From the IMG/VR virus record IMGVR_UViG_3300027690_000140, positions 1-53,229 of that record: 53,229 nt of DNA; one strand, given 5' to 3'. The notes under the pieces are model-generated. The model made no database searches. It had not been told where the DNA came from and was given only the letters and a program-made list of their open reading frames with translations. This document shows, piece after piece, positions 1 to 52,903 of this stretch. The translations under genes were made by a program, and so were the position numbers. The stretch's first letter is position 1. Every line of letters starts with the position of its first letter. The DNA is from a virus. Lineage: Duplodnaviria; Caudoviricetes.

Positions 1-486
1 TTATGCAGTTAATTTTTTACTTTCAAGTTCTTCGCCGTCAGTTTTAACCGTTTGCGAACCCCACATTTTCCGGATTTCGTTAAGGTCATACCTGACTTTA
101 TTAAATTTTACATACGTTCCATGATGCCAGTACCATGCTATTTTACTACCGGAGAACTTAAATCCGATTTCTTTCAGGTATTCTTTGTACTGTTTTGTTT
201 CTCCGGTTAACCAAATCCAACTGCCTATAATCTCAATGTTTACACCTTTCAAGTTGAATACACGGGCAATCATTTCAGCAAATGGATAAATAGTATTCTC
301 TTCCTGTTTAGCCCTTTCCCCGGTATAGGAATTATTGATTAACTGCTTGGAGATTTTCTCATACAGGGTATTTATTTCCTGCATGGTGCGCAGGTCTCCA
401 CCTCTGTCTGGGTGATGAATGAGTGCAAGACGGTAATATTCCTTTCTTAACTCATTCAGGTCGGTAATGTTTACAAAGTATTTCAT
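1..486 (-). CDS. J-domain (DnaJ-like) protein
   Basis: N-terminal LRKEYYRLALIHHPDRGGD...MQEIN with the HPD motif. Confidence 0.85.
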   Translation of the reverse strand: MKYFVNITDLNELRKEYYRLALIHHPDRGGDLRTMQEINTLYEKISKQLINNSYTGERAKQEENTIYPFAEMIARVFNLKGVNIEIIGSWIWLTGETKQYKEYLKEIGFKFSGSKIAWYWHHGTYVKFNKVRYDLNEIRKMWGSQTVKTDGEELESKKLTA

Positions 487-866
487 AACATAGTCATTAC
501 CGTAAAACCATTCTTTTGGAAATATGCCCTGAACCTCTCCATGGTAGGGATTAGATAGAACTGAATTTGTTCTTCGATCTCTTTAACAGAAGTTTTGGCG
601 TTGATTATTTCGCCTTCTTCATCAGTTCCCGCAATAATAGCATTACCGGACAGTGGATAAACAAATCTGTCAAGCGTGAATCCGCCAACCTGATCTTTGA
701 GGTATCCTTCCTCGTCCACAAATATTGCATCCCTGTTTAATAAGGATACCGGACATTCAATCACTCTGCAATTTATCTGTTTATAAAATGCCTCGAGGGT
801 GTTCTCGATTTCGATTTCTTTTACCTGACGGTTTACTACGTCGATAAAAATTACTTTTACTTTCAT
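483..866 (-). CDS. DUF3846-like phage protein
   Basis: EIENTLEAFYKQI-C..IE...VDEEG..K...GNAIIAG.DEEGE pattern; leader motif upstream. Confidence 0.7.
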   Translation of the reverse strand: MKVKVIFIDVVNRQVKEIEIENTLEAFYKQINCRVIECPVSLLNRDAIFVDEEGYLKDQVGGFTLDRFVYPLSGNAIIAGTDEEGEIINAKTSVKEIEEQIQFYLIPTMERFRAYFQKNGFTVMTML

Positions 867-1033
867 GATTTGTGATTTTGGTAAAACAATTTGATAACTG
901 AAATAATCTCCTTCTTTGTAGGATTATTGCCGTATTGAAGGCGAACCTGTTCGGAAATAGCTTTTATATCATTTACACAGACAGGATCGTAACCGGCAAT
1001 GAGTTCTGATATTATCTTTCTGAACCTGTACAT
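863..1033 (-). CDS. Small hypothetical protein (56 aa, MYRFRKIISELIAG...YQNHKS), not in ORF track
   Basis: Hand-translated open frame fills the gap; its TGA overlaps the ATG of the 866 gene (ATGA coupling). Confidence 0.6.
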   Translation of the reverse strand: MYRFRKIISELIAGYDPVCVNDIKAISEQVRLQYGNNPTKKEIISVIKLFYQNHKS

Positions 1034-1224
1034 ACTGAGGTATAAAACCGTTCGACTTCTTCATCTATCATCTCAAGCAAGTCCTCGTAATGCAGTTCAT
1101 ATAAAGCATTTCCAAGTCCGTTTTTAAGATTGATAAAGATTCCTGATTCGTCACCAACCCGGTACTTTCTGTATGCAGCACATTCCTTTTCAATTCTGCG
1201 CATTATCCATGTCCTGAGTTCCAT
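1012..1224 (-). CDS. Hypothetical phage protein
   Basis: ORF in a tightly packed operon. Confidence 0.6.
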   Translation of the reverse strand: MELRTWIMRRIEKECAAYRKYRVGDESGIFINLKNGLGNALYELHYEDLLEMIDEEVERFYTSVCTGSER

Positions 1225-1420
1225 AATTCACGAATTTTGAAATGAATACTTCCCAAAGTTCCTCAGGATCAATTTCCTGAGTAGTGTCAGGGTAATGAAG
1301 TAAGAGATACTTAACAAACTTCAAACGATAACCTGTTTTAGAATTTGCAAAACCATTCCCGAGTTCCTGTTGGATATCGGAAAGATGGCTCAGAATTACT
1401 GTGCTTAGTTTAACTTTCAT
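1190..1420 (-). CDS. Hypothetical phage protein
   Basis: ORF preceded by the leader motif and a promoter. Confidence 0.75.
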   Translation of the reverse strand: MKVKLSTVILSHLSDIQQELGNGFANSKTGYRLKFVKYLLLHYPDTTQEIDPEELWEVFISKFVNYGTQDMDNAQN

Positions 1421-1448
1421 GATTAATGATTTTGGTTCTTAATTATAT

Positions 1449-1514
1449 TAAACTTACTCAATATAAATTAATTAAACAAGCGTTTTGCTGATCATTTATA
1501 TACTAATACGTATA
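1449..1514 (-). promoter_or_regulatory. Bacteroidota-type promoter (CTTG-N20-TAAGTTTA) plus upstream 16-bp box TATACTAATACGTATA (1499-1514)
   Basis: Matches -33/-7 consensus geometry; same layout at 2566, 7579 and 40937. Confidence 0.75.
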
Positions 1515-1522
1515 ATTATTCA

Positions 1523-2146
1523 CTATAGCTTGTTTTGATCTGTGTAAGAATAAAATGTATTATCGGCAATAATGATATGGTCAAGCACCTGAACATCCAA
1601 TAAGCTGAGTCCGGTTTTGAACTTCGAGGTTATCAGATTGTCAGCTTCCGAAGGATTTTCATTTCCACTGGGGTGGTTATGTACCAATATAACTGAGGAG
1701 GCAAGAAGTTCAATTGCACGTTTGGCAATCAGCTTTACATCAACGACAGTTCCGGAAACACCTCCCTGGCTGATTCTTTTGAATTCTAATACCTTGTTGT
1801 TTCGGTTCAGGTACATCGCCCAGAATTCCTCGTGCTGAAGATCCGCCAGTACCGGTTGCATCATTTCAAAGGCATCTTTGCTCGCTGTGATTCTTTTCTT
1901 GTTTAAAGCTTCCCTGTGTTGCCTTCTTCTTCCTATTTCAATGATTGCCATTAGACGGCATGCTTGCGCCCGGGAAAGTCCGGAATCTACCAATGACTGG
2001 TAGTCCATTTTAGCTACATCCGGTAATCCTTTGTTTAGAATTGCTTCCGCTGCTTTGTCGGAGTTTTTCCCTCCAACAACGAATGAAACCAGTTCCTTGT
2101 CGGATACATAGTCCATTCCTTTTTCCATAAATTTTCTGTATTCCAT
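1523..2146 (-). CDS. radC: RadC family JAB/MPN protein
   Basis: HNHPSGNENPSEAD and VLDHIII JAB motifs, EEFW motif. Confidence 0.95.
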   Translation of the reverse strand: MEYRKFMEKGMDYVSDKELVSFVVGGKNSDKAAEAILNKGLPDVAKMDYQSLVDSGLSRAQACRLMAIIEIGRRRQHREALNKKRITASKDAFEMMQPVLADLQHEEFWAMYLNRNNKVLEFKRISQGGVSGTVVDVKLIAKRAIELLASSVILVHNHPSGNENPSEADNLITSKFKTGLSLLDVQVLDHIIIADNTFYSYTDQNKL

Positions 2147-2233
2147 GATTGATGATTTTGGTTTAAGCGGATAGGAGGGAAGTTACTCCCTCCGCAGCCG
2201 GGATTCTCGGCTTACTCCCTTGCACCCGTTTTG

Positions 2234-2536
2234 CTATTCAACGTAAGGCTCAAACTGAGTTAATAAGCTTCCGCTTGACTCAACCGACAACAGGTATCCG
2301 AATTCTTTGGGATTTCTAACTGCATCAGTAATCTGAGGTATAATGAAACCTTTCTTGAATATTTCTACCTGTTCTTTTGTAAGGATATTTGATACATCAG
2401 GATCATCTGAGGTTTCAATTCCGACCATTTCATCAGCCAGTTGAAGAAGTCTGTTTTTAAGTACATAAGCGTTTCTGTTATTTTGATAGTTAATAAACGC
2501 CTTTTTTGCTTCGGAGTAAATCTGTTGAATTGTCAT
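2234..2536 (-). CDS. Hypothetical phage protein
   Basis: ORF with a degenerate leader motif and a promoter. Confidence 0.7.
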   Translation of the reverse strand: MTIQQIYSEAKKAFINYQNNRNAYVLKNRLLQLADEMVGIETSDDPDVSNILTKEQVEIFKKGFIIPQITDAVRNPKEFGYLLSVESSGSLLTQFEPYVE

Positions 2537-2565
2537 GATTTTATGGTTTTGATTGTTTTATGTAT

Positions 2566-2630
2566 CTAACTTACACATAATAAATGAAATATGCAAGCTC
2601 CGAACCAAAACATTTATACTAAAAGGGATA
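2566..2630 (-). promoter_or_regulatory. Promoter (CTTG-N20-TAAGTTAG) plus 16-bp box TATACTAAAAGGGATA (2615-2630)
   Basis: Same geometry as the promoters at 1449, 7579 and 40937. Confidence 0.7.
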
Positions 2631-2895
2631 AAAAATGAAATATTTTTCTGGATGAAAAGAGGAAATTAGAGATTACAAACAAAGTGAATTCATGTTTTTG
2701 TTATTATATTGTTTAATTTTTTTGGAATAATTATTAATAAAGTTGCTTTGATTATTAAAAAAGTTGCTTTAATTTTATTAATGAAATGTAATCTACCAAG
2801 AACGATTTAACAAATATTTAGACTGCACTTCATAAAATAAGTATTCTATGGGATATTTCAAGTAGATATTAAGTTTAACCATAAAACAAATAACA

Positions 2896-3027
2896 ATGAC
2901 AAAACTGCAAAAACAGATTAGACATCGCGATGCTGGAACAGGGAAATATGTTACAGAAGAATACGCGAAAAGGCATCCCAAAACAACAGTTAAAGAAACT
3001 GACAAGATAAAAAGGAGAACGAAATAA
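2896..3027 (+). CDS. Small basic 43-aa protein (RDAGTGKYVTEEYAKRHPKTTVKE family), not in ORF track
   Basis: Hand-translated MTKLQKQIRHRDAGTGKYVTEEYAKRHPKTTVKETDKIKRRTK; A-rich leader; recognisable conserved small-protein motif. Confidence 0.7.
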   Translation: MTKLQKQIRHRDAGTGKYVTEEYAKRHPKTTVKETDKIKRRTK

Positions 3028-3121
3028 GATCAATACAAGAAATATGAATAAAGGTTCAAAAAAAGGAGCTATACATTGGTAGTTTCAGAATTTTTAATAT
3101 TTCAAATTACTTAAAAAGATA

Positions 3122-3952
3122 ATGAATTTCTTATTTTGGAATTTAAACAAGAAAAAAATCGGGAAATATATAAGCGATTTATGTGAGGATTATAATATTG
3201 ATATCCTAATAGTTGCAGAATCTTCTTATATTGGAAGTGAATTGTTAATAGAGCTTAATAAGGATAAGGTAGAGTTCTTTCCTCAAAATCCAATAAGTCA
3301 ATGCAAGAAGATACAAATATATACAAGATTTCATTATGATTTTATTGCCCCAATTTTTGAAGAAAACAGATTAACAATTAGAGAATTAACTCTACCTTAC
3401 GTGGATAAAATATTAATTACAGCAATTCATTATTTTGATAAATATAATCATTCTGATGAAAGTCAATCTGAAGAAGCTAGTATTATAATTAAAAAAATAG
3501 AAGAAGTTGAAAATAATTATAATAATACAAAAAATTTAATTGTTGGAGATTTTAATATGAATCCTTTTGAAAAACCGTTAATTAAAGCTAATGGATTTAA
3601 TGCTACAATGTCCAGTAAAATAGCTTCACAGGAAATTAAAACAGTACAAGGAAATCAATTTAAGTACTTTTACAATCCTATGTGGAGCCTATTTGGAGAC
3701 TTGTATTCATGCCCGGAAGGAACTTATTATTATAAACATGCTGAATATATAAATTATCAATGGAATATTTTTGATCAAGTATTACTTAGACCAGAATTAA
3801 TAAATTACTTTAACAAAAAAAGTTTAAAAATCATATCAAAAATTGGAAAAAAGAATATACTTCTTGATCAAAATCATATTCCTAATAAAAATGATTTTTC
3901 TGATCATTTACCTATAACTTTTTCACTTAATTTGATTAATAATAAAAATTAA
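3122..3952 (+). CDS. Endonuclease/exonuclease/phosphatase (EEP) family protein
   Basis: FWN, AE, GDFN, FDQV and SDHLP catalytic motifs. Confidence 0.9.
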   Translation: MNFLFWNLNKKKIGKYISDLCEDYNIDILIVAESSYIGSELLIELNKDKVEFFPQNPISQCKKIQIYTRFHYDFIAPIFEENRLTIRELTLPYVDKILITAIHYFDKYNHSDESQSEEASIIIKKIEEVENNYNNTKNLIVGDFNMNPFEKPLIKANGFNATMSSKIASQEIKTVQGNQFKYFYNPMWSLFGDLYSCPEGTYYYKHAEYINYQWNIFDQVLLRPELINYFNKKSLKIISKIGKKNILLDQNHIPNKNDFSDHLPITFSLNLINNKN

Positions 3953-3957
3953 ATAAT

Positions 3958-4341
3958 ATGTCAGCAACCAAAAATTTATGGCCGGAATTCAAACCGGAAA
4001 AATTAGTGAGTCCTAAAACACTAATGATTGAACAAGCCAATTTTTTAAGTGAATCAACTAAAAAGGTACTTATTGGAGAGGTCTCTTCTAACAATATACC
4101 TGGGAAAAAAGATCAAATTGTACATACGTTTAAAATAGTTGCTCCAACATTAAATAATTATAAATTTGCTCTCTTCACTGTACAGCATGGTTTAATGTTT
4201 TATCCTTTATCAATCATCTTTCAAGGAAAGAGAGAAATTTTAAATGAGGAGAATGCATTAATTAATAAGATGCGAGAAATATTTAATGACGAACACGCAC
4301 AAAGAATAGTACAATCGTTATACTCACAAAGTATATCATAA
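3958..4341 (+). CDS. Hypothetical protein, operon partner of the EEP nuclease
   Basis: Starts 5 bp after the EEP gene on the same strand, similar AT-rich composition. Confidence 0.8.
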   Translation: MSATKNLWPEFKPEKLVSPKTLMIEQANFLSESTKKVLIGEVSSNNIPGKKDQIVHTFKIVAPTLNNYKFALFTVQHGLMFYPLSIIFQGKREILNEENALINKMREIFNDEHAQRIVQSLYSQSIS

Positions 4342-4342
4342 A

Positions 4343-4376
4343 AAACGAACAGACAATATTTTTATCTGCCCGTTTC
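4343..4376. terminator. Probable terminator hairpin between convergent genes
   Basis: AAACGAACAGA...TCTGCCCGTTT imperfect inverted repeat with a flanking A-run. Confidence 0.45.
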
Positions 4377-4391
4377 CTGATATATTGATTG

Positions 4392-5135
4392 TTAATTTTG
4401 GTTATGCCCCGTGATGTTCTGCCGGTAACAGTTCTTTATAACGCTATGAACAAATTCCCGGCCTTTCTCTGTCCAGTAAGTATGAATTGCAGTATGCTGA
4501 TTTCCTTCATAATCTGTGTACGTGGTTGTTTTTGTACTGATATATCCCTTGTCCTGATACCTGTGGTATAACACCCATGTATTCCCGCTCCGGTAAATGA
4601 CATTCAGTTTATGTAAAATCCGGTTCAGGCTGACTGCACTCATTCCGAGTTCTTTTGCAATGACATTCGTCGCAATAAGGCTTTCGCTTTGCAGGACATC
4701 ATCGTAATATTCAACTTTCGGTGCAACAAGCATCAATTGTTGTTTAGAGAGTTGCAATTGCATTTCCAAGGCTTTAGTCCGGTTTGCAAGGATTTCATTT
4801 GCCCTGCAAAGAATAAAATCCTCATTTCTCAATAGTGCTTCCCGCCGGTTAAATTCTTTGATGAACATTTCTTTAAATCTGGCTGCCTTTTCTCCGGTGT
4901 ATCCCATGACTAAGAAGGAGAAACCGTCTTTGGTCATTTCGAATGCAGTTTGTTCCCGGTTTCTGGAATCATAATAAGAAATAACGCCAAAATTGGCGGT
5001 ATTAAATTCCTGCGAACAATCAAGGTTTTTTATATCACGACAAACCTTATCATGATCTTTCTCGAAAACTTCGGCAACCATAATTGATGTGGTTACGTCG
5101 TTTCCTTTGCTGTTGGTGAATACTAACTCTTTCAT
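4392..5135 (-). CDS. rha: Rha family / KilAC(ANT) phage antirepressor
   Basis: TTS..VAEVFEK.H..V.RDI and MTKDGFSFLVMGYTGEKAA.FK (Rha), plus C-terminal PKVEYYD...IAKELGMSA...WTEKGREF (ANT). Confidence 0.93.
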   Translation of the reverse strand: MKELVFTNSKGNDVTTSIMVAEVFEKDHDKVCRDIKNLDCSQEFNTANFGVISYYDSRNREQTAFEMTKDGFSFLVMGYTGEKAARFKEMFIKEFNRREALLRNEDFILCRANEILANRTKALEMQLQLSKQQLMLVAPKVEYYDDVLQSESLIATNVIAKELGMSAVSLNRILHKLNVIYRSGNTWVLYHRYQDKGYISTKTTTYTDYEGNQHTAIHTYWTEKGREFVHSVIKNCYRQNITGHNQN

Positions 5136-5386
5136 GCCACTGCCCTTTCATGCTTTAAGGTTTGCGCCTTTTTCAAGGCTTCTGACAACACCTGATAGGT
5201 ACAATAAACTGCCTTGACAAATTCGTCATTCTTGCAGCATTTTGAGAGAAAGTAAACATCCATTAACTCCCTGAGGTTATTCAGGGTGACTGCCGGATCA
5301 TCCCATGCTAAAATTTCGTTGATGATTTCTTCAGCCGTGACTGGCTTAGTTTGCGTTACATTGAAATTCTTTTCGCTTTTGCTCAT
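5132..5386 (-). CDS. Small protein upstream of the antirepressor (icd-like position)
   Basis: ATGA overlap with rha; its start region is the target of an upstream antisense segment. Confidence 0.75.
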   Translation of the reverse strand: MSKSEKNFNVTQTKPVTAEEIINEILAWDDPAVTLNNLRELMDVYFLSKCCKNDEFVKAVYCTYQVLSEALKKAQTLKHERAVA

Positions 5387-5413
5387 TTTTTGAAAAGTAT
5401 TGATTTAACAAAT

Positions 5414-5487
5414 GGGGGAGGTCACCGAGCAAAAGCGAACCATTAATTTGATAGGTTGAAGGGACTTGCACCCTTTTGCCTCCCCTT
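5414..5487 (-). ncRNA. C4/CI-like antisense RNA element
   Basis: Closing stem GGGGAGG/CCTCCCC, internal AAGGG/CCCTT hairpin, and a 13-nt segment (5427-5439) perfectly complementary to 5372-5384 at the start of the downstream gene. Confidence 0.65.
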
Positions 5488-5540
5488 AATTGTTTTAACC
5501 TAAGTTTGATTGAGTATTTCATGGTTTATTTTGCTCATTT

Positions 5541-5571
5541 CAAACTTAGGAAAAAATATTGATATAACAAA
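5541..5571 (-). promoter_or_regulatory. Consensus Bacteroidota promoter TTTG-N19-TAAGTTTG for the antirepressor operon
   Basis: Exact TAnnTTTG and TTTG boxes. Confidence 0.75.
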
Positions 5572-5650
5572 TAGATAATCAGCATATTAACAAAACATTT
5601 TACTGATTTTTTCAATGAACTTACACAAATTTAAGAAATAATTTGGAAAT

Positions 5651-5682
5651 AAAAGGGGTCTGCTCAATTTTGCGCAAACCCC
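5651..5682 (-). terminator. Intrinsic terminator
   Basis: GGGGTCTGC/GCAAACCCC stem followed by a U-tract on the minus strand. Confidence 0.6.
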
Positions 5683-5705
5683 CGAGCGGACAACCAAGCA
5701 CAAAC

Positions 5706-7010
5706 CTACAAATTATAGGCATTAACGAGTTTCATGTAATTTATCAGTTCATTGATGGAGGCTGTCTGAAAACCACGTGTGCAGTCCCCAGAACCGTGTT
5801 TTAAGTGGATATATTCTTCAATGATTGTATTTAGGGTTTCATGCTTTCCTTTATCTAAGCTGTTTACCCCAAGAAGGATGGTTTCCTTCTCGATGCTACC
5901 CAGGATTTCAGGTTCGCCAAACCGGACAACTTTAATTGGGTAGGGGATTTCAAAACGGCATTCTTTCAAAAAGGATTAGATTTCTTTTAATGTCTGGGCT
6001 TGCAGGGGAGTTAATTGTACTTCCTGATAAATATGTCCTCTTTCACTGATAACAAAATTCCCGGACTGTACATGATTTCCTTTTAACGCCACCAGTGCAT
6101 GATATAACCGGGTGGGCAGAAATAAAGTCTTTGGTCTTTCTTCATCTGAAACATATCCGGCAAGGGTTTTCGGACAAATTCTCTTTCCTGAGATAGCCTC
6201 AGACCAGCTTTCGTCATTCAAATCTGTGTAGGATAATGATAAACAGGAATTATCCATCCGACTTTCCAAAAAGGAATCATCTGTCAGGTTTCCTACAAGA
6301 TGCCTGAGTATTTTCGGGTCATTACAACTATATAACAGTTTCCAGATTTCCTCGTTCAGCTCCCACTGGTATTTGATTAGCCTGTCCTCGTTTATGTCAA
6401 CATGAAACAAATCATAATCAAATACACTGTTCAGGTCGGTTTCATAGCACCGAATGCCTTTCCGGTAAATACAGGCTTTGCTTCCATGCTTTTTGTAAAT
6501 CCTGCCCCTTTCGTTTTCATACAACACCGTTTTATTCATGGCGAAATAATCATCCAGGGTGAACATAAACTGTTCAAGTTCATCATTCATCTGAATGATA
6601 ATTGTGGTTTTTTCTGTATCAATAAGATCAGCAAGCTGGGTTTCGGTGACAACTTCGAACATGACTAATCCCTCGTCCACTGCGTTGGAGTATAATTCCC
6701 GAATGGACTGCCAGAGTGTCCAGTCTTTACCCATGGAAGTGGTGATGGAAGTTTCCCTGCCTTCAATTTTCAGGACATTGAATTCTTTTCCCCGGAGCGT
6801 ATTAACAACGGTTTCGATTTTCAGCTTTCTTGGTCCTGACATAATATGAAGATCATAACCGTTTCGGACTAAGTAAGCTAATGCATACTTGTTTCCAGAA
6901 CCGAACATTCCGATTTTTGCAGGATCATCTGCTTTTGTGCTTGCGCCTATCAGCGTTAATGCTGCGGGCTCAAGAATGCCTTCATTAGCAATTATTAAAT
7001 ACTTTTTCAT
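5706..7010 (-). pseudogene. Permuted GHKL/HATPase-like protein with a C-terminal HExxH-like motif, split by an in-frame TAA at 5976-5978
   Basis: ORFs 5976-7010 and 5706-5969 are in the same frame (…KEI*SFLKECRF…); motifs NEG, IGMFGSG, IRELYSNAVDE and EEYIH; likely start at 7010 right after the leader motif. Confidence 0.7.
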
Positions 7011-7079
7011 GATTAATGATTTTGGTTTGATATAGACCCTCCGGAGAGGGTTTCTGCTATTCAAGCGTCGTCGGTATAC

Positions 7080-7550
7080 CTATGATAATACCTCAATCAC
7101 ATCCTTTGCAACATGGCATTCATTGATACATACCTCTGCGAATCGGCAAGCAACTTCTTCTGCTTCTTCCATTGTTCCAAACTGAGGACTTCTCAAACTG
7201 TCATAATCTACTTCAATATTAAGTTTGCGTCCTTCAAATTGCGCAAAACCTTCCTTCATCTTTTCATCAAAGAAAGTGCAGGGTTGTAAATAAAATCTTT
7301 TCATTCTTTCAGCCAATACTGTCAATTTGCGAACATTCTCCTTTTCATCCATTCTGTATATTTCGGGATTGTAGTTATACTCTACTGCTACTTCATATCC
7401 TGAATTCCATGTTTTGAATTGAATTTCAACATTATTGATTAATCCGGTTTTTTCAAGAGCTTCCCATACATTGGTGAAATAGGGAAGAATTTTTTCAATT
7501 GCATCCAGGCAAATCTGCTGTGCTTTTACTGTTGTTTTTACTGTTTTCAT
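7080..7550 (-). CDS. Hypothetical phage protein
   Basis: ORF with leader motif and promoter. Confidence 0.8.
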   Translation of the reverse strand: MKTVKTTVKAQQICLDAIEKILPYFTNVWEALEKTGLINNVEIQFKTWNSGYEVAVEYNYNPEIYRMDEKENVRKLTVLAERMKRFYLQPCTFFDEKMKEGFAQFEGRKLNIEVDYDSLRSPQFGTMEEAEEVACRFAEVCINECHVAKDVIEVLS

Positions 7551-7578
7551 AATTTTGTGATTTTGGTTGTTATTGATA

Positions 7579-7643
7579 TAAACTTACTCATAATAAATGA
7601 ATTGTGCAAGCTTGTTGATCAAAAAAATATACTAAATGGGATA
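7579..7643 (-). promoter_or_regulatory. Promoter (CTTG-N20-TAAGTTTA) plus 16-bp box TATACTAAATGGGATA (7628-7643)
   Basis: Same geometry as the promoters at 1449, 2566 and 40937. Confidence 0.75.
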
Positions 7644-7926
7644 AATTTTTAAAAGATTGAGAAAAAGCGGATAATGAAAATTGATAAGTGTTTTTGAATA
7701 TTAGGAAATATGGTTTAATTTTATTTAGTGATTCTATTGGATCTTGGCAATTATTTTAAAATACCGAATAAAAAAGTAACAAAATTTAGTTTATATACAA
7801 TTATTGACCATAAACAATACAGAGTAAATAGAAATAGATAATTTAATAAAAACATTTCTTGTAAATAATTGACAGGACAAGTAAGCCAAAAATCCTTGAG
7901 AGTAGGTAATAATTAAATTAATTAAA

Positions 7927-8466
7927 ATGAGAAAAATAATTTTAATTTTTATCACACTGATAGTCTTCAGTAGTAGTCTTTTTTCGCAAGAATTAGTACT
8001 AAAACAGGCTGATTTAAATGCAGAGAAACGTCCTGCGGGAGAATTTACCAGTTATGAAAGTAAGGACGGTTCTGTTTATAAGATTGGAGACAAAATTACA
8101 ATTGGTGTTCCTTCTTCAAATAAAACATTTGCATTTATAACAGAAGGCGATGGTTTAATAATTCCAATTACTCAATTATTAGCAAGTGCAAGTGGTCAAC
8201 AGGTTGAAATAAAAAGGATTGATGTTGTAGGTAGTAAAAGAACTGGTTTTTTAGCTTCATTAAGATGTAAAGGACTAACTGGATTATCTAACTATAGCAT
8301 ACAACTTGAAAATGCTATTTCCGTTGGCGAAGTAAAGTCTTTTGGAATGACAAGTGATGAAGCTCTTACTGAACTTAAAAAAGCAAAGGATAAGTTAGAT
8401 TTAGAGATAATAACACAAGAAGAGTATGATAAAATTAAGGCTGATTTGATGAAGTATATAAAATAA
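7927..8466 (+). CDS. Exported protein with C-terminal SHOCT domain (moron)
   Basis: Signal peptide ending SLFSQ; C-terminal ELKKAKDKLDLEIITQEEYDKIKADL. Confidence 0.8.
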   Translation: MRKIILIFITLIVFSSSLFSQELVLKQADLNAEKRPAGEFTSYESKDGSVYKIGDKITIGVPSSNKTFAFITEGDGLIIPITQLLASASGQQVEIKRIDVVGSKRTGFLASLRCKGLTGLSNYSIQLENAISVGEVKSFGMTSDEALTELKKAKDKLDLEIITQEEYDKIKADLMKYIK

Positions 8467-8750
8467 CAGCCCATAATAAATAGGACTCTGAGCGGTCTGC
8501 AAGACTCAGCGAAGAGTATATACTGAACAACATCCCGATCAATTTCAGGATAATTTTTATTCTAAGCTGTATAGTCAATAATGGTTTTAGTGGTTTGCAA
8601 AAGTATAAAGCTCGTAAAAAAAGTCAGTGTAAATTGATAGGAAACGGCTTCGAAATCTCTTACTCGTCATACCACCGAATGTTAAACTACATCCAGTATT
8701 CTACAGGCATACCAGATTTTCACCCCCAAAAAATGTAACATTATCAAAAA

Positions 8751-8786
8751 AAACGAGTATAATAGAATAATTCTATATACTCGTTT
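8751..8786. repeat. Near-perfect inverted repeat / hairpin
   Basis: AAACGAGTAT(A)ATAGAA-TAA-TTCTATATACTCGTTT. Confidence 0.7.
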
Positions 8787-9113
8787 CTTAAATTTCATGA
8801 AATAAAGAAAGGGGAGGAGTGTATAAACAAATACTGACTTATATTTGGATAATTACGCACTAAATGTTGAAGAAAGCATTTTCAGCATCCTCCCCCTATT
8901 TTTTTAAATCTCTTTCCTGTATATTAACAACTATTTTTATAAAATCTGGTAATTCATTTAAATAATTGATATTCAATAATTTTAGAATTACACTTAATTC
9001 AAAGCTAATAAAAACATTGCTTTTGACTAAATTATTGCTCATCTTTTTAATGAATTTTCATCAAAATATGTTTCCAGAATTTTTAATTATATAATTATCA
9101 GCTACTTGTGTGG

Positions 9114-9147
9114 AAAATAAAAAATGCCCCGGTAATCAGCCGGGGCA
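9114..9147 (-). terminator. Intrinsic terminator ending the sRNA and probably the late transcript
   Basis: Perfect 8-bp stem TGCCCCGG/CCGGGGCA followed by TTTTTTATTTT on the minus strand. Confidence 0.85.
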
Positions 9148-9195
9148 CAACCAAAATCACAATCATGCCCCGAGAGGGGAAATGAAGGTGAGATG
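9117..9195 (-). ncRNA. Putative trans-acting antisense sRNA complementary to the shared early-gene leader motif
   Basis: Minus strand reads promoter, CCCC-TCTC-GGGG hairpin, CATGATTGTGATTTTGGTTGT, terminator; the core is the reverse complement of 12 gene leaders. Confidence 0.7.
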
Positions 9196-9198
9196 CTA

Positions 9199-9230
9199 TA
9201 AAGTTAAGGCTTTTTTAAAATAAAATCAAA
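9199..9230 (-). promoter_or_regulatory. Promoter TTTG-N20-TAACTTTA for the sRNA
   Basis: Same 20-nt spacing as the other phage promoters; no plausible CDS downstream before the terminator. Confidence 0.65.
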
Positions 9231-9240
9231 TGCTTTGAGG

Positions 9241-9825
9241 CTAAAACTTTATTCCGTACCGCAAAGAAAAATATCCAGTATTATTAACTCGACCATATTC
9301 AATTCCATATAAGGATTTGTTTTTAGAAATACAGTCCACAAAAATACCTGCACCCAAACCATTATACTGACTTAGCGAGATCCCACCATAAAATTCATTT
9401 TTCAAAGGCTCATTTACAATTACAGGTATTTTTTCGGTTATGGTGAGAGTTTCTTTTATTTCCCTGGGGACTTTTAACTGATATCCAATATTCCGACTTT
9501 CTATTGTACCTCGAACAGTATCATTTACATAAATAGAAATATCCTCCGTAACAAGGCTGTCTGAATAATAGTTAAGGGTAGGGGATATGGATACCGGAAC
9601 AGGGATTTCTTTTGGATACCATTTTACAACCGGCTCTGGCCTGATTGTATCCCTGAGAATTACTGTATCTGGTTTTTGATTTGCAATAATATTTATACTA
9701 TCTATCAAAGCAGAATATCGCTGTTCGGTTTCATGAATTCCGATTTTTCTGCCGGCAAGAAGTAATACAATGCACACGGCAAGCGCAATCAACAGTTTAT
9801 ACAATATACTACGTAAGGTTTCCAC
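9241..9825 (-). CDS. Membrane-anchored protein at the end of the late operon (spanin-like candidate)
   Basis: N-terminal TM helix, DT-rich linker, C-terminal beta-strands ending in F; near the lysis genes. Confidence 0.55.
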   Translation of the reverse strand: METLRSILYKLLIALAVCIVLLLAGRKIGIHETEQRYSALIDSINIIANQKPDTVILRDTIRPEPVVKWYPKEIPVPVSISPTLNYYSDSLVTEDISIYVNDTVRGTIESRNIGYQLKVPREIKETLTITEKIPVIVNEPLKNEFYGGISLSQYNGLGAGIFVDCISKNKSLYGIEYGRVNNTGYFSLRYGIKF

Positions 9826-30886: not shown

Positions 30887-33427
30887 ATGGTTTTTAGTAT
30901 TAGTCCTCTTCCCAACACGGTATGGGAAACATTATTTGATACATCTAATGTATGGAAGTTAATTGTCAGTAATAAAGACGAAATAACTTATACATCTAAA
31001 AACTGTGAAAATTTCATTGGAGTAACAGCTGATGAAATTGTTAAAAATCCAAGGTTGATATGGCATGCTATTGATAGAAACCATAGAAAAAAGGTAAAAA
31101 AATTTAGTACAAAAAGAAAAAACAATAACACAGATATTCTCAATATTGAGTTTAAGATTCATACTCCTGATGGTTCTGAAAAGTGGTTGTCATCTGATAG
31201 CCAACCTGTATTTTCTCCGGAGGGCATTCATATTGGTTATCGTCTCAATATTAGAGATATAACTGAATTAATGAAGGAAAAGCTCTGTCTAAAGAAATTA
31301 ATTAAACAACAAAATGTACTTGTATTAGTAACCCAAATAGCTGCAAGTACCGATCCATTTAATACCCGTATAGAGTCTATTCTTAAGATAATTGGTAATT
31401 ATACAGGGGTATCACGGGTTTATATTTTTGAGAATAGCAATGACGGTAAGGTTACCTCAAATACATATGAGTGGTGCCGTAAAGGAATAACTTCTCAGAA
31501 AAACAATTTGCAAAATATTTCCTATTCAATAATTCCTTCATGGGTGAAAATCTTATCCAAAAAAGGTATTATTATGACTTCTGATATTAAGACTCTTCCT
31601 GCTGATATTTATAATGTTTTAAATCCCCAGGGAATTAAATCAATATTAGTGATACCGCTTAATTTTCAAGATCATCAGTTAGGATTTATTGGTTTTGATG
31701 AATGTAAACGCCAAAGGATTTGGGAAAATGATGAGATAAACTTACTAAAAACAGTATGTAATACAATTACAAATGTTTTTTACAGGAATACATACGAAAA
31801 GGAGCTGGAGCAGGCTAAAAATAATTTACAAAACTTACTGAATAGAAAAATATCTGAACTTCACAGGAGTGAAAATTATTTTAAAGCGCTCATTGAAACC
31901 CAACAAGACCTTATCTGCCGATGGCTTCCGGACACTACGCTGACTTATGTCAATGATGCATACTGTAAATTCTTTAATGTTAAGGATGAAGAAATAATTG
32001 GTAGAAAATGGATTGATTTTATTGAAAGTGATTCACGATCTCATATTGAGCCCATTATTAAGAATATTTTTAAAACCGGAAATCCAGCTACATATGAACA
32101 TACTGCAATAAATTTTAAAGGAGAAGTGCGTTGGCATCAATGGATTGATACTCCATTAAAGAATCAGGACGGTGTCATCACTGAGTTGCAATCTACGGGC
32201 AGAGACGTAACCGATAAAATTAATTATGAGACAGGTCTGACAAAGGCAAAAGAGAAGATGGAAGAACTGGACAGAACCAAACTGGAATTTCTCCGGCTTG
32301 TTTCACATGAATTACGTACTCCCTTAAACGCAATTCTTGGTTTTAGCGAGCTGATTAAAACCACTACTGATATTGAACTAATAAGCACTTTCAGTTCTTA
32401 TATATATGAGAGCGGGAAAACCTTATTCAAGATGATAGAAGATATGTTAACATTAACAAATCTTCAAAGTGGAAATACACCGGTTACTTTTGAGGAAATA
32501 GAACTGCTTCCCTTATTAAAAGAGCTTTACGAAAAATTTGACAATAACCTGATAAAATTAGAGAAACCGGTATCCTTAAAACTCAAACATTATATTAAAC
32601 CTGGTTTTAAAATTATTGTTGATAAAGGGAAATTGGAATTTATATTGACAAAGTTGTTAGACAATGCCCTTGTATTTTGTGACAAAGGTCTTATTCAGTT
32701 TGGTTCCAGGATAAAAAAAGATAATATTCTATTTTATGTAAAAGATGAAGGAATAGGAATATCAGAAGAAAATCAGAAAAATATTTTTCAGGATTTCAAA
32801 AAGATAAACTCGCAAAACAGGTCTTTCCATGAGGGACTTGGAGTAAGCTTATATATATCAAAAGAGTTAGTCGAGTTAATGGGCGGTCACATCTGGGTGG
32901 ATTCAAAAATTAATATAGGATCGACTTTTTATTTTACTTTACCATTACAAAAAGGAGAAAGGAATATAACCTATTCGATATTAAAAGAAATAGCCATTCC
33001 GGAAGAAGATAAAATAATACCTGATTTAAAAGGCAGAAAAATCTTAGTTGTAGATGATACTGAGTCGAATCTGAAGTATTTAGTAGAAGCTATTAAAGAG
33101 ACCAAAGCATCCATTCTATGGGCAAGAAATGGAGCAGAATGTCTGAATATTTTCAGATCAAACAGGGATATTGACTGTGTTCTGATGGATATTCTCATGC
33201 CAGAGATGGATGGATACGAAGCATGTTTGCAGATACGAAAACTAAATGATGAAGTTCCTATTATAGCTCAAACTGCATATGGTTTGGACGATGAAGTAAA
33301 AATGGTGATCGACTCAAACAACTTTACAGATTATTTGATCAAACCTGTTTGGAAACATGAATTATTCCGGAAATTAAAGAAGCATCTTTTAAAATCGCAA
33401 CCTGTAAATTATAATGAGAGAAGGTAA
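30887..33427 (+). CDS. Hybrid sensor histidine kinase (PAS-GAF-PAS-HisKA-HATPase-REC)
   Basis: SHELRTPLN H-box, DEGIGI, GLGVSL, VVDD/LMDILMPEMDG/KP receiver motifs. Confidence 0.95.
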   Translation: MVFSISPLPNTVWETLFDTSNVWKLIVSNKDEITYTSKNCENFIGVTADEIVKNPRLIWHAIDRNHRKKVKKFSTKRKNNNTDILNIEFKIHTPDGSEKWLSSDSQPVFSPEGIHIGYRLNIRDITELMKEKLCLKKLIKQQNVLVLVTQIAASTDPFNTRIESILKIIGNYTGVSRVYIFENSNDGKVTSNTYEWCRKGITSQKNNLQNISYSIIPSWVKILSKKGIIMTSDIKTLPADIYNVLNPQGIKSILVIPLNFQDHQLGFIGFDECKRQRIWENDEINLLKTVCNTITNVFYRNTYEKELEQAKNNLQNLLNRKISELHRSENYFKALIETQQDLICRWLPDTTLTYVNDAYCKFFNVKDEEIIGRKWIDFIESDSRSHIEPIIKNIFKTGNPATYEHTAINFKGEVRWHQWIDTPLKNQDGVITELQSTGRDVTDKINYETGLTKAKEKMEELDRTKLEFLRLVSHELRTPLNAILGFSELIKTTTDIELISTFSSYIYESGKTLFKMIEDMLTLTNLQSGNTPVTFEEIELLPLLKELYEKFDNNLIKLEKPVSLKLKHYIKPGFKIIVDKGKLEFILTKLLDNALVFCDKGLIQFGSRIKKDNILFYVKDEGIGISEENQKNIFQDFKKINSQNRSFHEGLGVSLYISKELVELMGGHIWVDSKINIGSTFYFTLPLQKGERNITYSILKEIAIPEEDKIIPDLKGRKILVVDDTESNLKYLVEAIKETKASILWARNGAECLNIFRSNRDIDCVLMDILMPEMDGYEACLQIRKLNDEVPIIAQTAYGLDDEVKMVIDSNNFTDYLIKPVWKHELFRKLKKHLLKSQPVNYNERR

Positions 33428-33539
33428 AAGTTAGAATGGAATTTCTACGTTTGTGGAGATAATTTCATAATGTTTGAGAGTATTAAAAATGTTTTTTACT
33501 TTTATTTGACAATATTAAGTTCGTCTTATTATAAATATT

Positions 33540-34301
33540 ATGTCATCTACAACAATTACAGGAAATATCAAGAAAATTGCATTTGAAGTTTTGGAAAGCA
33601 CGCCTGAAGGAATTCGTTATTCTGAATTAGCAAGAAAAATTCTTGAACATGGAGATTTTAACAAGAATACTATAAGCGGAGCAACCTGGGATTTAGATAT
33701 TCAGTTTCCTGACAAAGTCTATAAACCTGATAGAGGTGTGTTCCGATTACTGAAATTCAAGGAGAATATTATAACCCAACCTGACCAACAAATATCACCA
33801 ACTGTAAAGACAGGTAAGAAGAAAACAATTAAAGAGGAAGAGTTTTACAAACCTTTTGCAGATTGGCTGGTAAATGAACTTGAAGAGTGCACAAATGCTA
33901 TTGAGCTTGGTGGAAATATTTTCCGTGATAAATGGGGCACACCTGACGTTATAGGAATAAGGGAATCTAAACGGAGTGATATTGTGCAATTTCCAACTGA
34001 GATAATCTCTGGTGAAATAAAAATTGATTCCAATGGATTGATAACTGCATTTGGACAAGCTTGTGCTTATAAAATCTTTTCCCATAAATCTTATATTGTT
34101 GTGCCAAATGATTCGCAAATTGAAGATATTACAAGACTTGACACACTTTGCAGGCAATTTGGGATTGGTTTAATACTTTTTGATTGTCATAATCCGGAAG
34201 ATCCAAATTTTGAGATTAGAGCGAGGGCTGTAAAACATGAACCTGATATGTTTTTTGTAAATAAAAACCTTAAAATTATTGAAGATAGATTGTTCAAGTA
34301 G
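33540..34301 (+). CDS. Winged-helix + PD-(D/E)XK nuclease (HrgA/COG2958-like)
   Basis: N-terminal HTH; KWGTPDVIG...EIK...FGQA...FGIG. Confidence 0.65.
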   Translation: MSSTTITGNIKKIAFEVLESTPEGIRYSELARKILEHGDFNKNTISGATWDLDIQFPDKVYKPDRGVFRLLKFKENIITQPDQQISPTVKTGKKKTIKEEEFYKPFADWLVNELEECTNAIELGGNIFRDKWGTPDVIGIRESKRSDIVQFPTEIISGEIKIDSNGLITAFGQACAYKIFSHKSYIVVPNDSQIEDITRLDTLCRQFGIGLILFDCHNPEDPNFEIRARAVKHEPDMFFVNKNLKIIEDRLFK

Positions 34302-34351
34302 GAACTCTAATAAATTTCAATACAAACTTTCAATTATCCTTTTAATATTAT

Positions 34352-39848: not shown

Positions 39849-40174
39849 ATGCTGATTCCGGATTTTATGTGATCTCTAAACGGTAGATGCTCTAAAAAAT
39901 ACTTATACAAATCAACGTACTTCCCTTCCACATTCAGGATATAGAGGGAGTTCAGATTATCCAGGGCATCGTATTTATCAAACTTACCTTCATATTCGCC
40001 GGATTCGTTAAGTTCTTCCGCCCATTGCGTAAATGATTTCACCCTGTTTCGCTTTTTCCAGTCATACTTAATAAGCTGGCAAAGTTTTTTCGGGGTATCG
40101 ATCACTGACGCACCATTGATTTTGGTAGTGTGATCAATTACTCGACCGTCTGGTAACAAGATTGAAAATTTCAT
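39845..40174 (-). CDS. Hypothetical early protein
   Basis: Leader motif directly before the ATG. Confidence 0.8.
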   Translation of the reverse strand: MKFSILLPDGRVIDHTTKINGASVIDTPKKLCQLIKYDWKKRNRVKSFTQWAEELNESGEYEGKFDKYDALDNLNSLYILNVEGKYVDLYKYFLEHLPFRDHIKSGISI

Positions 40175-40190
40175 GATTGCGTGATTTTGG

Positions 40191-40445
40191 TTAATTTTTA
40201 CATAATTCTAATTTCCAATCATAAACTAATTTATTTAATCGCTTCTCAAATGATTCAAATGTTTTAGAACTATGAATAATTTTGCCATTGAATAAAATTT
40301 TATAACCAACAAATGGTGTGCGAGGCTCAAACCATATTTCAGCAATTCTTATATCATCTTTTTGTATAGTTTCTTGAAATTTTTCATTACTAAACTCTAA
40401 ATGATTACCGTTAAGCATTTCTCGTTTTAATTCTTTTGTTTTCAT
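40191..40445 (-). CDS. Hypothetical early protein (start corrected to 40445, MKTKELKRE)
   Basis: Leader motif precedes the ATG at 40445; the ORF-track extension NQNHAIM is the motif itself. Confidence 0.8.
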   Translation of the reverse strand: MKTKELKREMLNGNHLEFSNEKFQETIQKDDIRIAEIWFEPRTPFVGYKILFNGKIIHSSKTFESFEKRLNKLVYDWKLELCKN

Positions 40446-40464
40446 GATTGCGTGATTTTGGTTG

Positions 40465-40689
40465 TTACTGCCATAAGTAGTTTTCATTCACCTGAGTGAT
40501 TCCAAATGATGTTTCAACTTCAACCATCGAAACATCTTGCATTAACTCAGTAACGGTTTCCATGTTACCGGTAATCTTTAGTATGTCAATTACTTGATTT
40601 CCTTTTTCATCCAACACCATACAGATATTGGATTTTGCAGGTTTACTAACATCAAACCTTGTGCCTTTTGCAGTTGTGATCATTTTCAT
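40465..40689 (-). CDS. Hypothetical early protein (start corrected to 40689, MKMITTAKG)
   Basis: Leader motif precedes the ATG at 40689. Confidence 0.8.
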   Translation of the reverse strand: MKMITTAKGTRFDVSKPAKSNICMVLDEKGNQVIDILKITGNMETVTELMQDVSMVEVETSFGITQVNENYLWQ

Positions 40690-40705
40690 AATTGCATGAT
40701 TTTGG

Positions 40706-40909
40706 TTATGCAAATTTCTTACAATATTCATTATAGAATTTCTCTGCTTCTTCAAGCGTGTCAAACACTCCGAGGCAGTTGTCATACTCTGATACGGAGT
40801 ATTCACCGGTTTTGAGATAGTCCAGGTACATTACTGCACCATCGAAACTATCGGACTTAATTGTGTCCTCAATCAGATGGTCGATTTCTTCAAAGCTACT
40901 TGTTCTCAT
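40706..40909 (-). CDS. Hypothetical acidic early protein
   Basis: Leader motif and promoter; D/E-rich. Confidence 0.8.
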   Translation of the reverse strand: MRTSSFEEIDHLIEDTIKSDSFDGAVMYLDYLKTGEYSVSEYDNCLGVFDTLEEAEKFYNEYCKKFA

Positions 40910-40936
40910 AATTTGTGATTTTGGTTGTTTGTATTG

Positions 40937-43020: not shown

Positions 43021-43692
43021 CTAAAAAAGTTTTGCCTGCGAATTATCATCGGATTTGGAATTAAAGTTCTTTTGTGATTCCGGAAATACAAACCCAGGGA
43101 GCGTCTTGCAATTTTGCTGTGCCTGTCTTTCTTCCTCCGATAACTGAAAGAATTTCTCATGCCATTCTTTACGTTCTTTTTCAAACTCCACAGGGGCAAA
43201 TGGTTCAACCTTACTTCCTTCATCATGGAAATACTGAATGCCTCTGCCTTTGGATTTTCCCTTTCTTGTATGAACATCCAAAGCATAATCCGGAATCTCC
43301 AGATTGTGTGTATCGTGTTTATGAAAGAAATAATTCTTGCTCCAGTCGCAAATCCTTGACTTTTTCGCCCTGCATAGCAGTATAACTGCATGAAACAGCA
43401 TGAGCCTTATCTGATCACCGGTTTTTTCATTTTTGAGTTGAAAATAGGTATCGTGCAAGGCTTTTATTGTTGCCGGCATCATAGGTTCGGCAATCCCGAC
43501 ATCTTCACTGGTAATAATGAGTATTCTTTTCCATAGATACTTATCATATCCAGTATTATACAATTCCTGCGCCCAATAACAGGCATCTTCTTCTTTGTTT
43601 CTTCGGACGGATTTTTGAAAAGCTGAGCTTACCTCAAAAAAATCGTATCCTTTTTTAGTGAAAAGTTTGAAGTCTTTTTTCTCGTTACTCAT
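43021..43692 (-). CDS. Stand-alone MgsA/RarA C-terminal-like domain protein
   Basis: SAFQKSVRR....ACYW...WKRILIITSEDVGIAEP; no Walker motifs. Confidence 0.75.
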   Translation of the reverse strand: MSNEKKDFKLFTKKGYDFFEVSSAFQKSVRRNKEEDACYWAQELYNTGYDKYLWKRILIITSEDVGIAEPMMPATIKALHDTYFQLKNEKTGDQIRLMLFHAVILLCRAKKSRICDWSKNYFFHKHDTHNLEIPDYALDVHTRKGKSKGRGIQYFHDEGSKVEPFAPVEFEKERKEWHEKFFQLSEEERQAQQNCKTLPGFVFPESQKNFNSKSDDNSQAKLF

Positions 43693-43740
43693 GATTTATG
43701 ATTTTGGTTATCAATACAATATACGAATATTTGTTGATAT

Positions 43741-48887: not shown

Positions 48888-48933
48888 ATTCCATGATTTG
48901 TGATTTTGGTTATTACAATATACTCATAAATAT

Positions 48934-52757: not shown

Positions 52758-52903
52758 TTTTCATTGTGATTTTGGTTGGACAAATAAACCTGATGATAAT
52801 CTATTGGCTTCTTTTTGCTACCCCTTATAATTATTCTCACCTGTAAGTAAAGCAGGGTTGTGCATACAATTATTATAATGAGTGTGCCAAGTAAAAATTT
52901 CAT
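52754..52903 (-). CDS. Small membrane protein (49 aa, MKFLLGTLIIIIVCTTLLYL...), not in ORF track
   Basis: Hand-translated; ATGA-coupled to the exonuclease; -7 box TAAGTTTA at 52925-52932. Confidence 0.6.
   Translation of the reverse strand: MKFLLGTLIIIIVCTTLLYLQVRIIIRGSKKKPIDYHQVYLSNQNHNEK

Follow-up and report, generated by a model that had tools for sequence, protein, structure and literature searches.

Why should a phage that sets one short tag before a dozen of its early and middle genes, always in the same orientation, also carry a single exact copy of this tag turned around, behind the last gene of its late operon? This question is raised by the locus at 9112-9240 of virus record IMGVR_UViG_3300027690_000140, an IMG/VR provirus of 53,229 bp (the whole stretch, here called the window; estimated completeness 96%, G+C 36%). 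The tag, AACCAAAATCA(C/T)-N0-2-AAT(C/T)ATG, is present at 12 minus-strand start sites, where it acts as a leader immediately before the start codon, and once, exactly inverted, on the plus strand at 9149-9167. The arrangement is genuine and far outside what chance would produce. The reading that explains it most economically is plausible and is put forward tentatively: an RNA carrying the inverted copy (the anti-leader RNA), either the 3' untranslated region (UTR) of the late operon or a short small RNA (sRNA), masks the start regions of the early genes. This reading is supported by an exact 19-nt inverted copy of a motif that is otherwise found 12 times on the other strand only.

The host is very probably a member of the Bacteroidota, since the phage promoters are of the TTG-N19-21-TAnnTTTR type, the Shine-Dalgarno sequence is absent and the capsid protein is closest to those of Riemerella, Porphyromonas and Cellulophaga phages. 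The late operon is on the minus strand and opens with the genes for the small and large terminase (30593-28657). The early and middle type genes of the minus strand encode a RecE/exonuclease VIII-like protein, Lin1244-like and DnaB replication proteins, RadC, Rha/ANT and many small unknown proteins, and an MgsA_C-like gene heads an operon with ParB and glycosyltransferase genes.

Concerning the tag, its core TGATTTTGGT is the commonest repeated 10-mer of the window, with 13 copies and one inverted copy. The string AACCAAAATCAC has 13 matches when up to one mismatch is allowed (12 on the minus strand and one on the plus strand), and 22 when up to two are allowed, versus 10.4 ± 2.7 in shuffled sequences. 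All 12 minus-strand copies stop 2-5 nt upstream of an ATG, which at 10 of them opens an open reading frame (ORF) of 67-344 aa, and they differ from one another at several positions. At 48894 and 52764 the leader ATG opens a mini-ORF of 6 and 11 codons, respectively, and the real start lies 7 nt downstream. These mini-ORFs (48874-48911, encoding MEYGKN, and 52729-52777) overlap the real starts and may be upstream ORFs or mere spacing variants. No copy of the tag is found in the late operon (9241-30593), at the plus-strand ORF starts of the window, or at 40 motif-less minus-strand ORF starts, late genes included, that were used as controls (0/40). By these counts, the tag is class-specific, restricted to non-structural genes and to one orientation. 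A degenerate leader, AATCAAAACCATAAAATCATG, was also noticed at 2536-2560, before the ATG at 2536 and 3' of the early promoter at 2568-2599, and it looks like a diverged thirteenth sense copy.

The distance between leader and ATG is constant, whereas the distance from the leader to the -7 box varies (3, 6 or 10-11 nt), and seven of the copies are positioned between cistrons without any promoter. As the ATG distance is fixed and the promoter distance is not, the arrangement points to a signal read on the mRNA rather than on the DNA. Where the promoter belongs to the TAAGTT family (three cases), the leader begins near the expected transcription start, so that it would be practically the entire 5'UTR of these transcripts. 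This agrees with Bacteroides mRNAs, whose modal 5'UTR is 23 nt long and whose start regions are A-rich and free of Shine-Dalgarno sequences (PMC7366714).

The inverted copy reads AACCAAAATCACAATCATG on the plus strand, and counts over the window confirm the sequence-only reading of this DNA, in which it was described as the only one. With up to three mismatches, the inverted 19-mer has 2 matches in the window versus 0.03 expected, and the similarity to the leaders ends exactly at the borders of the leader consensus. The minus-strand order described in that reading is likewise present: a promoter-like element, a CCCC-UCUC-GGGG hairpin, the segment CAUGAUUGUGAUUUUGGUUGU between this hairpin and the terminator stem, the G+C-rich stem itself and a U-tract. 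The terminator (9148-9124) consists of a 9-bp stem with 7-8 G-C pairs and one G-U pair, a 7-nt loop and then UUUUUUAUUUU. A scripted search found only three canonical perfect-stem terminators on the minus strand of the whole window, and the stop codon is about 92 nt from the stem here versus about 19 and 7 nt at the other two. The anti-leader lies within this 3'UTR of the 194-aa gene, and no further canonical terminator occurs between the stop codon and 9148. As the late operon meets its first terminator only behind the anti-leader, the latter should, judging from its position, be transcribed whenever the operon is.

The 84-nt stretch is predicted to fold with a minimum free energy (MFE) of -31.9 kcal/mol (z = -4.76), and none of 200 shuffled sequences was equally stable. 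The predicted fold presents, in order, a 5' hairpin, the unpaired UUUUGGUU and the terminator; the outer pairs of the 5' hairpin hold the CAUGA and GUGA parts of the anti-leader, and its AUG-proximal part would thus be masked. Several features of sRNAs are found together at this locus. Its 3' end is a Rho-independent terminator. As in 3'UTR-derived sRNAs, it lies downstream of a stop codon and shares its terminator with the late mRNA, and, as in trans-acting sRNAs, it has no credible coding capacity (one minus-strand ORF of 22 codons that crosses the terminator, and plus-strand ORFs of 6 and 13 codons). The Rfam scan of the window returned no family at the gathering score. Matches to terminator-containing sRNA families were weak and far below threshold, and the 15 matches with E ≤ 10 in the scan of 7500-9400 did not include C4.

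Regarding the targets, a duplex scan of 21,276 windows of both strands gave a mean of -10.5 kcal/mol (standard deviation 3.1). The 12 leaders had been expected to rank at the top of such a scan, and they take 12 of the first 13 places among the non-self partners (-22.9 to -27.8 kcal/mol); the sole intruder is within a gene at 50589. The net cofold gain, that is, the energy of the full RNA cofolded with 50-nt start regions minus both monomer energies, was -10.9 to -17.3 kcal/mol for 12/12 leaders versus 0 to -7.5 kcal/mol for 40/40 control starts. Both the duplex and the cofold results follow from the complementarity itself and are not independent evidence for the interaction. What the cofold calculations show, as a model, is that the structure of the RNA would not prevent pairing, and the seed complementary to the target starts is predicted to be accessible. 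The perfect 16-nt pairing with the leaders at 7550, 40909 and 52764, and the bulged pairing across the AUG at 866, 48894, 40174 and 40445, hold as originally described. The sRNA interpretation therefore stands in part: the anatomy of a terminator-ended base-pairing RNA, the leader-complementary unpaired stretch and the clean separation from control starts support it, whereas the competing fold that had been attached to it does not (see below).

From the sequences, their complementarity, the position, the fold and the energies, we infer transcription, annealing in vivo and a repressive outcome along the following lines. The stretch 9112-9240 would be the untranslated tail of the minus-strand late operon of tail and receptor-binding genes, which closes at a strong intrinsic terminator. 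The leader of about 20 nt (AACCAAAAUCAY..AAUCAUG) would form nearly the whole 5'UTR or intercistronic spacer of 12 early and middle cistrons with roles in recombination, replication, RadC and small unknown functions. Any RNA ending at the 9148-9112 terminator would carry the anti-leader, be it the long late mRNA, a stable 3' fragment thereof or an RNA of about 75-80 nt initiated at TTTG-N20-TAACTTTA. The unpaired UUUUGGUU could nucleate pairing with the invariant leader core AACCAAAA. As the weakly held outer pairs of the 5' hairpin open, the duplex could lengthen to 16-19 bp and cover the start codon. Access of the 30S subunit would thereby be blocked, and the mRNA may be marked for degradation. 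The tagged early regulon could then be shut off once late transcription is high. Otherwise, if the separate promoter is active in the lysogen, the RNA could be a second lock on leaky or superinfecting early mRNAs. The features of the locus, the leaders and the late operon are collected in Table 1.

Table 1. Coordinates of the anti-leader locus, the 12 leader copies and late-operon genes in the window.
Feature	Coordinates	Strand	Remarks
Promoter-like element TTTG-N20-TAACTTTA	9199..9230	minus	Bacteroidota -33/-7 type; consensus match
Predicted 5' hairpin	9157..9191	minus	UCAC..UCAU..CCCC-UCUC-GGGG..AUGA..GUGA
Anti-leader	9149..9167	minus	minus RNA CAUGAUUGUGAUUUUGGUU; exact reverse complement of the leader consensus including AUG
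Candidate seed UUUUGGUU	9149..9156	minus	8 nt predicted unpaired (MFE structure, unpaired probabilities 0.6-0.9); complementary to invariant leader core AACCAAAA
Intrinsic terminator stem-loop	9124..9148	minus	GUGCCCCGG-CUGAUUA-CCGGGGCAU
Terminator U-tract	9112..9123	minus	UUUUUUAUUUUC
Leader copy	864..883	minus	TACCAAAATCAC AAATC ATG; before 127-aa ORF
Leader copy	1418..1437	minus	before 76-aa ORF; 11 nt past early promoter
Leader copy	2144..2163	minus	before RadC-like gene; GC hairpin upstream
Leader copy	7008..7027	minus	before 344-aa gene (phrog_8203); GC hairpin upstream
Leader copy	7548..7568	minus	before 156-aa gene; 10 nt past early promoter
Leader copy	40172..40192	minus	before 109-aa ORF; intercistronic
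Leader copy	40443..40463	minus	before 84-aa ORF; intercistronic
Leader copy	40687..40707	minus	before 74-aa ORF; intercistronic
Leader copy	40907..40926	minus	before 67-aa ORF; 10 nt past early promoter
Leader copy	43690..43709	minus	before 223-aa MgsA_C-like gene heading the ParB and glycosyltransferase operon
Leader copy	48892..48911	minus	ATG opens 6-codon mini-ORF; Lin1244-like replication gene truly starts at 48887
Leader copy	52762..52777	minus	ATG opens 11-codon mini-ORF; exonuclease gene truly starts at 52757
Orphan 194-aa gene, last of the late (tail) operon	9241..9825	minus	stop codon 9243-9241
BppU_N baseplate protein gene, late operon	10164-9838	minus	
M15 endolysin gene, late operon	11920-11450	minus	
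Tail endopeptidase gene, late operon	16238-12741	minus	
Major capsid protein gene, late operon	24221-23142	minus	

Nevertheless, several observations weigh against masking by an anti-leader RNA. In the predicted fold, the 5' hairpin of the RNA itself already ties up 11 of the 19 bases of the anti-leader, and the late operon requires a terminator anyway. The promoter counts on both sides. In favour of masking, the element at 9230-9199 is present as the sequence-only reading claimed, lies at a suitable distance and has the 20-nt spacing of three early promoters, of whose closely similar family it is not a member; against it, the window has no excess of the promoter pattern (13 matches versus 10.9 ± 3.0 in shuffled sequences). 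A separate promoter for a short RNA is thus possible from the sequence, and the match counts for little by itself. An operator box of the TATACTAA type lies 17-18 nt upstream of four early promoters and is absent at this element. Should the element be a true promoter outside the control of the early operator, it could drive the short RNA in the lysogen.

The search for relatives gives no help to this reading either, as neither DNA nor protein searches of viral, genome, metagenome or GenBank phage collections returned a tag-bearing relative. The DNA search of GenBank phages with the window had no match, and at the protein level the best matches were 35% for the major capsid protein (Riemerella phage PJN03) and 31% for TerL; no start tag of any kind is present in the two nearest of these phages, Riemerella PJN03 and Porphyromonas 005b. 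Among viral contigs, the major capsid protein and TerL found one short distant contig each (L010 and L145), and searches with the 194-aa, 423-aa and 344-aa proteins gave nothing useful. The 194-aa protein has one homologue, 64% identical, among 5.8 billion proteins. L145 is the only distant relative with early-type genes (TerL 55%, portal 37% and glycosyltransferases 33-37% identical), and its 14 ORF starts have ordinary A-rich leaders and no tag.

Searches for the pattern alone showed how it is distributed elsewhere. The leader pattern was found in 13 stretches of viral contigs, in a single copy each, and in at least 120 stretches of genome contigs, of which, among the matches listed, only one has two full matches. 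The promoter-plus-leader pattern was found in 18 stretches of metagenome contigs, which look like chance matches, and none of them continues into AAT(C/T)ATG. Single leader-form copies are at start-like positions in 49 of the 134 matches listed, many of them in genomes titled Bacteroidota, and the tag may be no more than an effective start region that has been duplicated across the phage genome. The tag is rare, with a single copy in 3 of 401 sampled genomes of one Bacteroidota class, and by these counts its accumulation to 13 copies within 53 kb is peculiar to this phage. The impression is of an effective Bacteroidota start region which the phage has amplified and set aside for a single gene class. 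Similar leaders occur in an unrelated 103-kb viral contig (L135/G001) with no protein similarity to the window: its terminal 2.3 kb (100754-103029) contain three, of the form ACCAAAATC..AAT.ATG, one of them directly 3' of a terminator hairpin; no inverted copy was present in the 72% of this genome that was examined. As a separate observation, a conserved promoter with the leader AACCAAAATCACTCAATTATG is common to four genome contigs (L015, L032, L101 and L109), in each case ahead of an orthologous gene for a secreted protein. Its signal peptide is MKKLNLLL..., and the complete ORFs measure 346-390 aa, that of L109 being cut off at 105 codons; a host gene family thus uses the same leader form.

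A start tag of a similar kind is known from Cluster K mycobacteriophages. Their start-associated sequence (SAS), the closest published analogue of the tag, is 13 bp long; it is placed 3-7 bp upstream of the start codons of non-structural genes, and the host genome contains few copies or none. It has one orientation, the site being rare on the complementary strand, and the question whether it is read by an RNA or by a protein was left undecided by its authors (PMC3203893). Papers of 2024 and 2025 continued to describe its role as unknown (PMC11373665, PMC12699233). Both are short tags near the starts of a dozen or more non-structural genes in one orientation (PMC3203893). On the other hand, SAS is a G+C-rich 13-mer, GGGATAGGAGCCC, with a Shine-Dalgarno core in actinobacterial phages, whereas the tag described here is an A/C-rich sequence of about 20 nt, AACCAAAATCAY..AATCATG, of Bacteroidota type and without Shine-Dalgarno sequence; it is an analogue of SAS and not a member. 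With up to two mismatches, forward and reverse SAS counts are 16/1 in Anaya, 13/1 in ZoeJ, 19/0 in Pixie, 23/1 in Kratio, 17/0 in Unicorn and 24/1 in Aminay. An inverted SAS is therefore found in 4 of 6 Cluster K genomes, at non-equivalent positions, and in neither Pixie nor Unicorn. As Cluster K lacks a universal inverted SAS, a tag regulon needs no anti-tag, and this lowers the prior for the RNA reading. The inverted copies also differ, since that of Cluster K is imperfect, not universal and of shifting position, and that of this phage is exact over 19 nt and abuts a terminator. In Anaya, the inverted SAS (59870-59882; 1071-1083 of L184) falls within the non-coding 385 nt that separate gp96 from gp97, where a terminator precedes it and a G+C hairpin is adjacent; this spacer is a candidate site for an anti-SAS RNA.

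The main rival is that the inverted copy is inert. The leader cassette would have been copied once, reversed, into the spacer after the late operon (e.g. by illegitimate or template-switch recombination) and would be passively transcribed, if at all, the leaders being read by a protein or the ribosome only. The cassette is clearly prone to spread, given its 12 copies, some at promoters and some between cistrons, and the plus strand at the locus repeats the layout of a GC hairpin followed by a leader that is seen at the real leaders at 2163 and 7027, together with a 6-codon mini-ORF resembling that at 48894. Moreover, the Cluster K tag regulons exist without a consistent inverted copy, and no relative was found that could show selection on the copy in this phage. 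However, the match to the consensus is perfect over 19 nt, while the real copies vary at several positions, and the similarity halts at the motif borders without any donor flank. Also, the 3'UTR that contains the copy is unusually long, and the copy is flanked there by a hairpin and a terminator, its invariant core being left unpaired in the prediction. Furthermore, the hairpin at 9124-9148 has a U-tract on its minus-strand side only, unlike those at 2163 and 7027, and is therefore a minus-strand terminator and not a flipped hairpin-leader module. An inert copy is somewhat less probable than masking by the anti-leader RNA, and it is the explanation that has to be taken most seriously besides it.

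It is improbable that the element functions on the plus strand or at the DNA level, as the leader of a tiny peptide (MPREGK, or the 13-codon ORF at 9182) or of an antisense transcript into the late operon, or as a double-stranded DNA site for a phage regulator. The plus strand does carry the full leader with its ATG and the mini-ORFs, and a DNA-binding protein would be indifferent to orientation. Nonetheless, there is no promoter-like element within about 60 nt upstream, the leader abuts the terminator hairpin, the ATG is buried in the same hairpin on the plus strand, and the 6- and 13-codon ORFs run head-on into the 194-aa gene. As for a DNA site, the fixed ATG spacing and variable promoter spacing of the 12 copies favour a signal at the RNA level.

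There is an equally small chance that the structure is only a cis-acting 3' end, which stabilises or terminates the late mRNA or attenuates through the GGGGCA / UGCCCC / GGGGCA repeats, the complementarity to the leaders being incidental. Three mutually complementary G+C segments permit 1:2, 2:3 and 3:4 pairings, and a 48-codon ORF (9042-8896) is present downstream of the terminator. The 2:3 pairing is the fold CGGGGCA/UGCCCCG which, in the sequence-only reading, displayed the anti-leader as a loop and competed with the terminator. This fold exists, but at -23.9 versus -31.9 kcal/mol it is 8 kcal/mol less stable and would form only after segment 2 is already paired, and it was rejected on energy. 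A purely cis-acting end would also leave unexplained the 19-nt identity to a motif present 12 times, for which 0.03 chance matches are expected. Finally, a small hydrophobic peptide gene starting at the minus-strand ATG at 9166 within the anti-leader is very improbable and was rejected as coding: the 22-codon ORF (MIVILVVPRLITGAFFIFHTSS) exists and is hydrophobic, but it crosses the terminator stem and the U-tract to a stop codon at 9098-9100, so the terminated RNA would have no stop, and the ATG of this ORF lacks an A-rich leader and is sequestered by pairing in the 5' hairpin.

An invertible segment at 7569-9148, with inverted leaders at its flanks and the plus-strand gene 7927-8466 inside, was considered as well. 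It was dropped because contigs of three sequencing runs pass straight through 7568 with no strand-changing joint, and because the same 16-mer is also found at 11 other places.

Masking of early starts by an anti-leader RNA would have precedents of several kinds. The c4 RNA and the CI RNA of satellite P4 are cut out of a longer transcript and, working via upstream translation or termination, target two sites of a single operon. The RNA proposed here would be like them a phage-encoded antisense RNA against short repeated sites in the phage's own lytic transcripts, and unlike them it would face 12 dispersed start regions. The c4 RNA of P1/P7 is a trans-acting antisense RNA that serves immunity (review PMC12197685). 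Regarding proteins, T4 RegA (122 aa) competes with the ribosome at the starts of about 30 early and middle mRNAs; its sites, degenerate and A+U-rich, overlap the AUG or lie just 5' of it, and the repressed mRNAs decay faster (PMC3014915). The proposed regulation would resemble RegA in having a single late-acting factor at many early starts, with an RNA and near-identical sites here versus a protein and degenerate sites there.

In Bacteroides thetaiotaomicron, GibS and the 14-member FopS family are terminator-ended sRNAs with a single-stranded seed that block the start regions of several operon-leading mRNAs, and their promoters are TTTG/TAnnTTTG; Bacteroides is without Hfq and ProQ, and its sRNAs may need extended seeds (PMC7366714, PMC11697453). 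These are host sRNAs in many copies that meet diverse SusC-type leaders, whereas here one phage RNA would meet 12 standardised leaders, and no sequence or Rfam similarity was found between GibS/FopS and the phage locus. In addition, 21 UTR-derived sRNA candidates are described in B. thetaiotaomicron (PMC7366714), and CisR of Vibrio cholerae is a 3'UTR-derived sRNA (PMC13250501). The RNA proposed here would share with this class a terminator common to a protein-coding operon and an origin at the operon 3' end by processing or from an internal promoter; unlike in other 3'UTR-derived sRNAs, its targets would be the phage's own earlier gene class. On the whole, it is possible, if slightly less likely than not, that a temperate Bacteroidota phage standardises a dozen early and middle leaders and controls all of them with one RNA from the 3' end of its late operon, perhaps also as an sRNA in the lysogen, which would amount to an RNA-only equivalent of RegA without Hfq.

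The claim of novelty made for this arrangement can be kept in one part. We found no printed account of one RNA facing dispersed identical starts; however, a dozen-copy start tag with an occasional inverted copy was already published for the SAS of Cluster K (PMC3203893). A 2025 review of phage sRNAs lists cis or single-locus cases (c4, sas, STnc6030), and neither 'multiple targets' nor 'Bacteroid' occurs in its text (PMC12197685). An anti-leader RNA would then be a variation on known kinds of regulation and would not found a new category. If true, one leader tag and one complementary RNA would provide a compact post-transcriptional timing of a whole gene class, following a logic already familiar from the T4 RegA protein and from immunity RNAs that serve a single operon (c4, CI). 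There would also be consequences for the understanding of sRNA action in Bacteroidota without Hfq, ProQ or Shine-Dalgarno pairing, and the reading offers a concrete hypothesis for the function of start tags such as the Cluster K SAS. The pair of tag and anti-tag could serve as a portable translational off-switch for Bacteroidota genetics.

Other features of the window were noticed outside this question. The plus strand at 30887-35380 encodes an 846-aa hybrid histidine kinase (GAF, PAS, HisKA, HATPase and receiver domains) and two more genes; this block, an unusual phage cargo, is located between the terminase promoter region and restriction-modification genes. A plus-strand promoter-like block (TTGA..TTTAATTTTA) is present at 7686-7725 and 2740-2779, each time before a region of plus-strand accessory genes. 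It recurs about 4 kb to the left of the window start, in 12.9 kb of a public contig beyond the record, and the phage or its flank therefore extends past the record.

Closer to the anti-leader, a hairpin-bearing stretch at 8474-8517 lies just 3' of a SHOCT-type lipoprotein-like gene (7927-8466, plus strand). It matches many other contigs of three sediment-metagenome DNA runs at 80-95% identity, so it is a repeat common to other DNA in the sample, and the phage contig of these runs, colinear with 1-8502 of the window, stops there. Between this repeat and the terminator, the plus strand at 8810-8905 has a long hairpin whose base is formed by 8 bp of G+C (GGGGAGGA...TCCTCCCC), with a T-run behind it; the 48-codon minus-strand ORF (9042-8896) ends inside the hairpin. 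This hairpin may be the terminator of the plus-strand accessory gene or a structured RNA.

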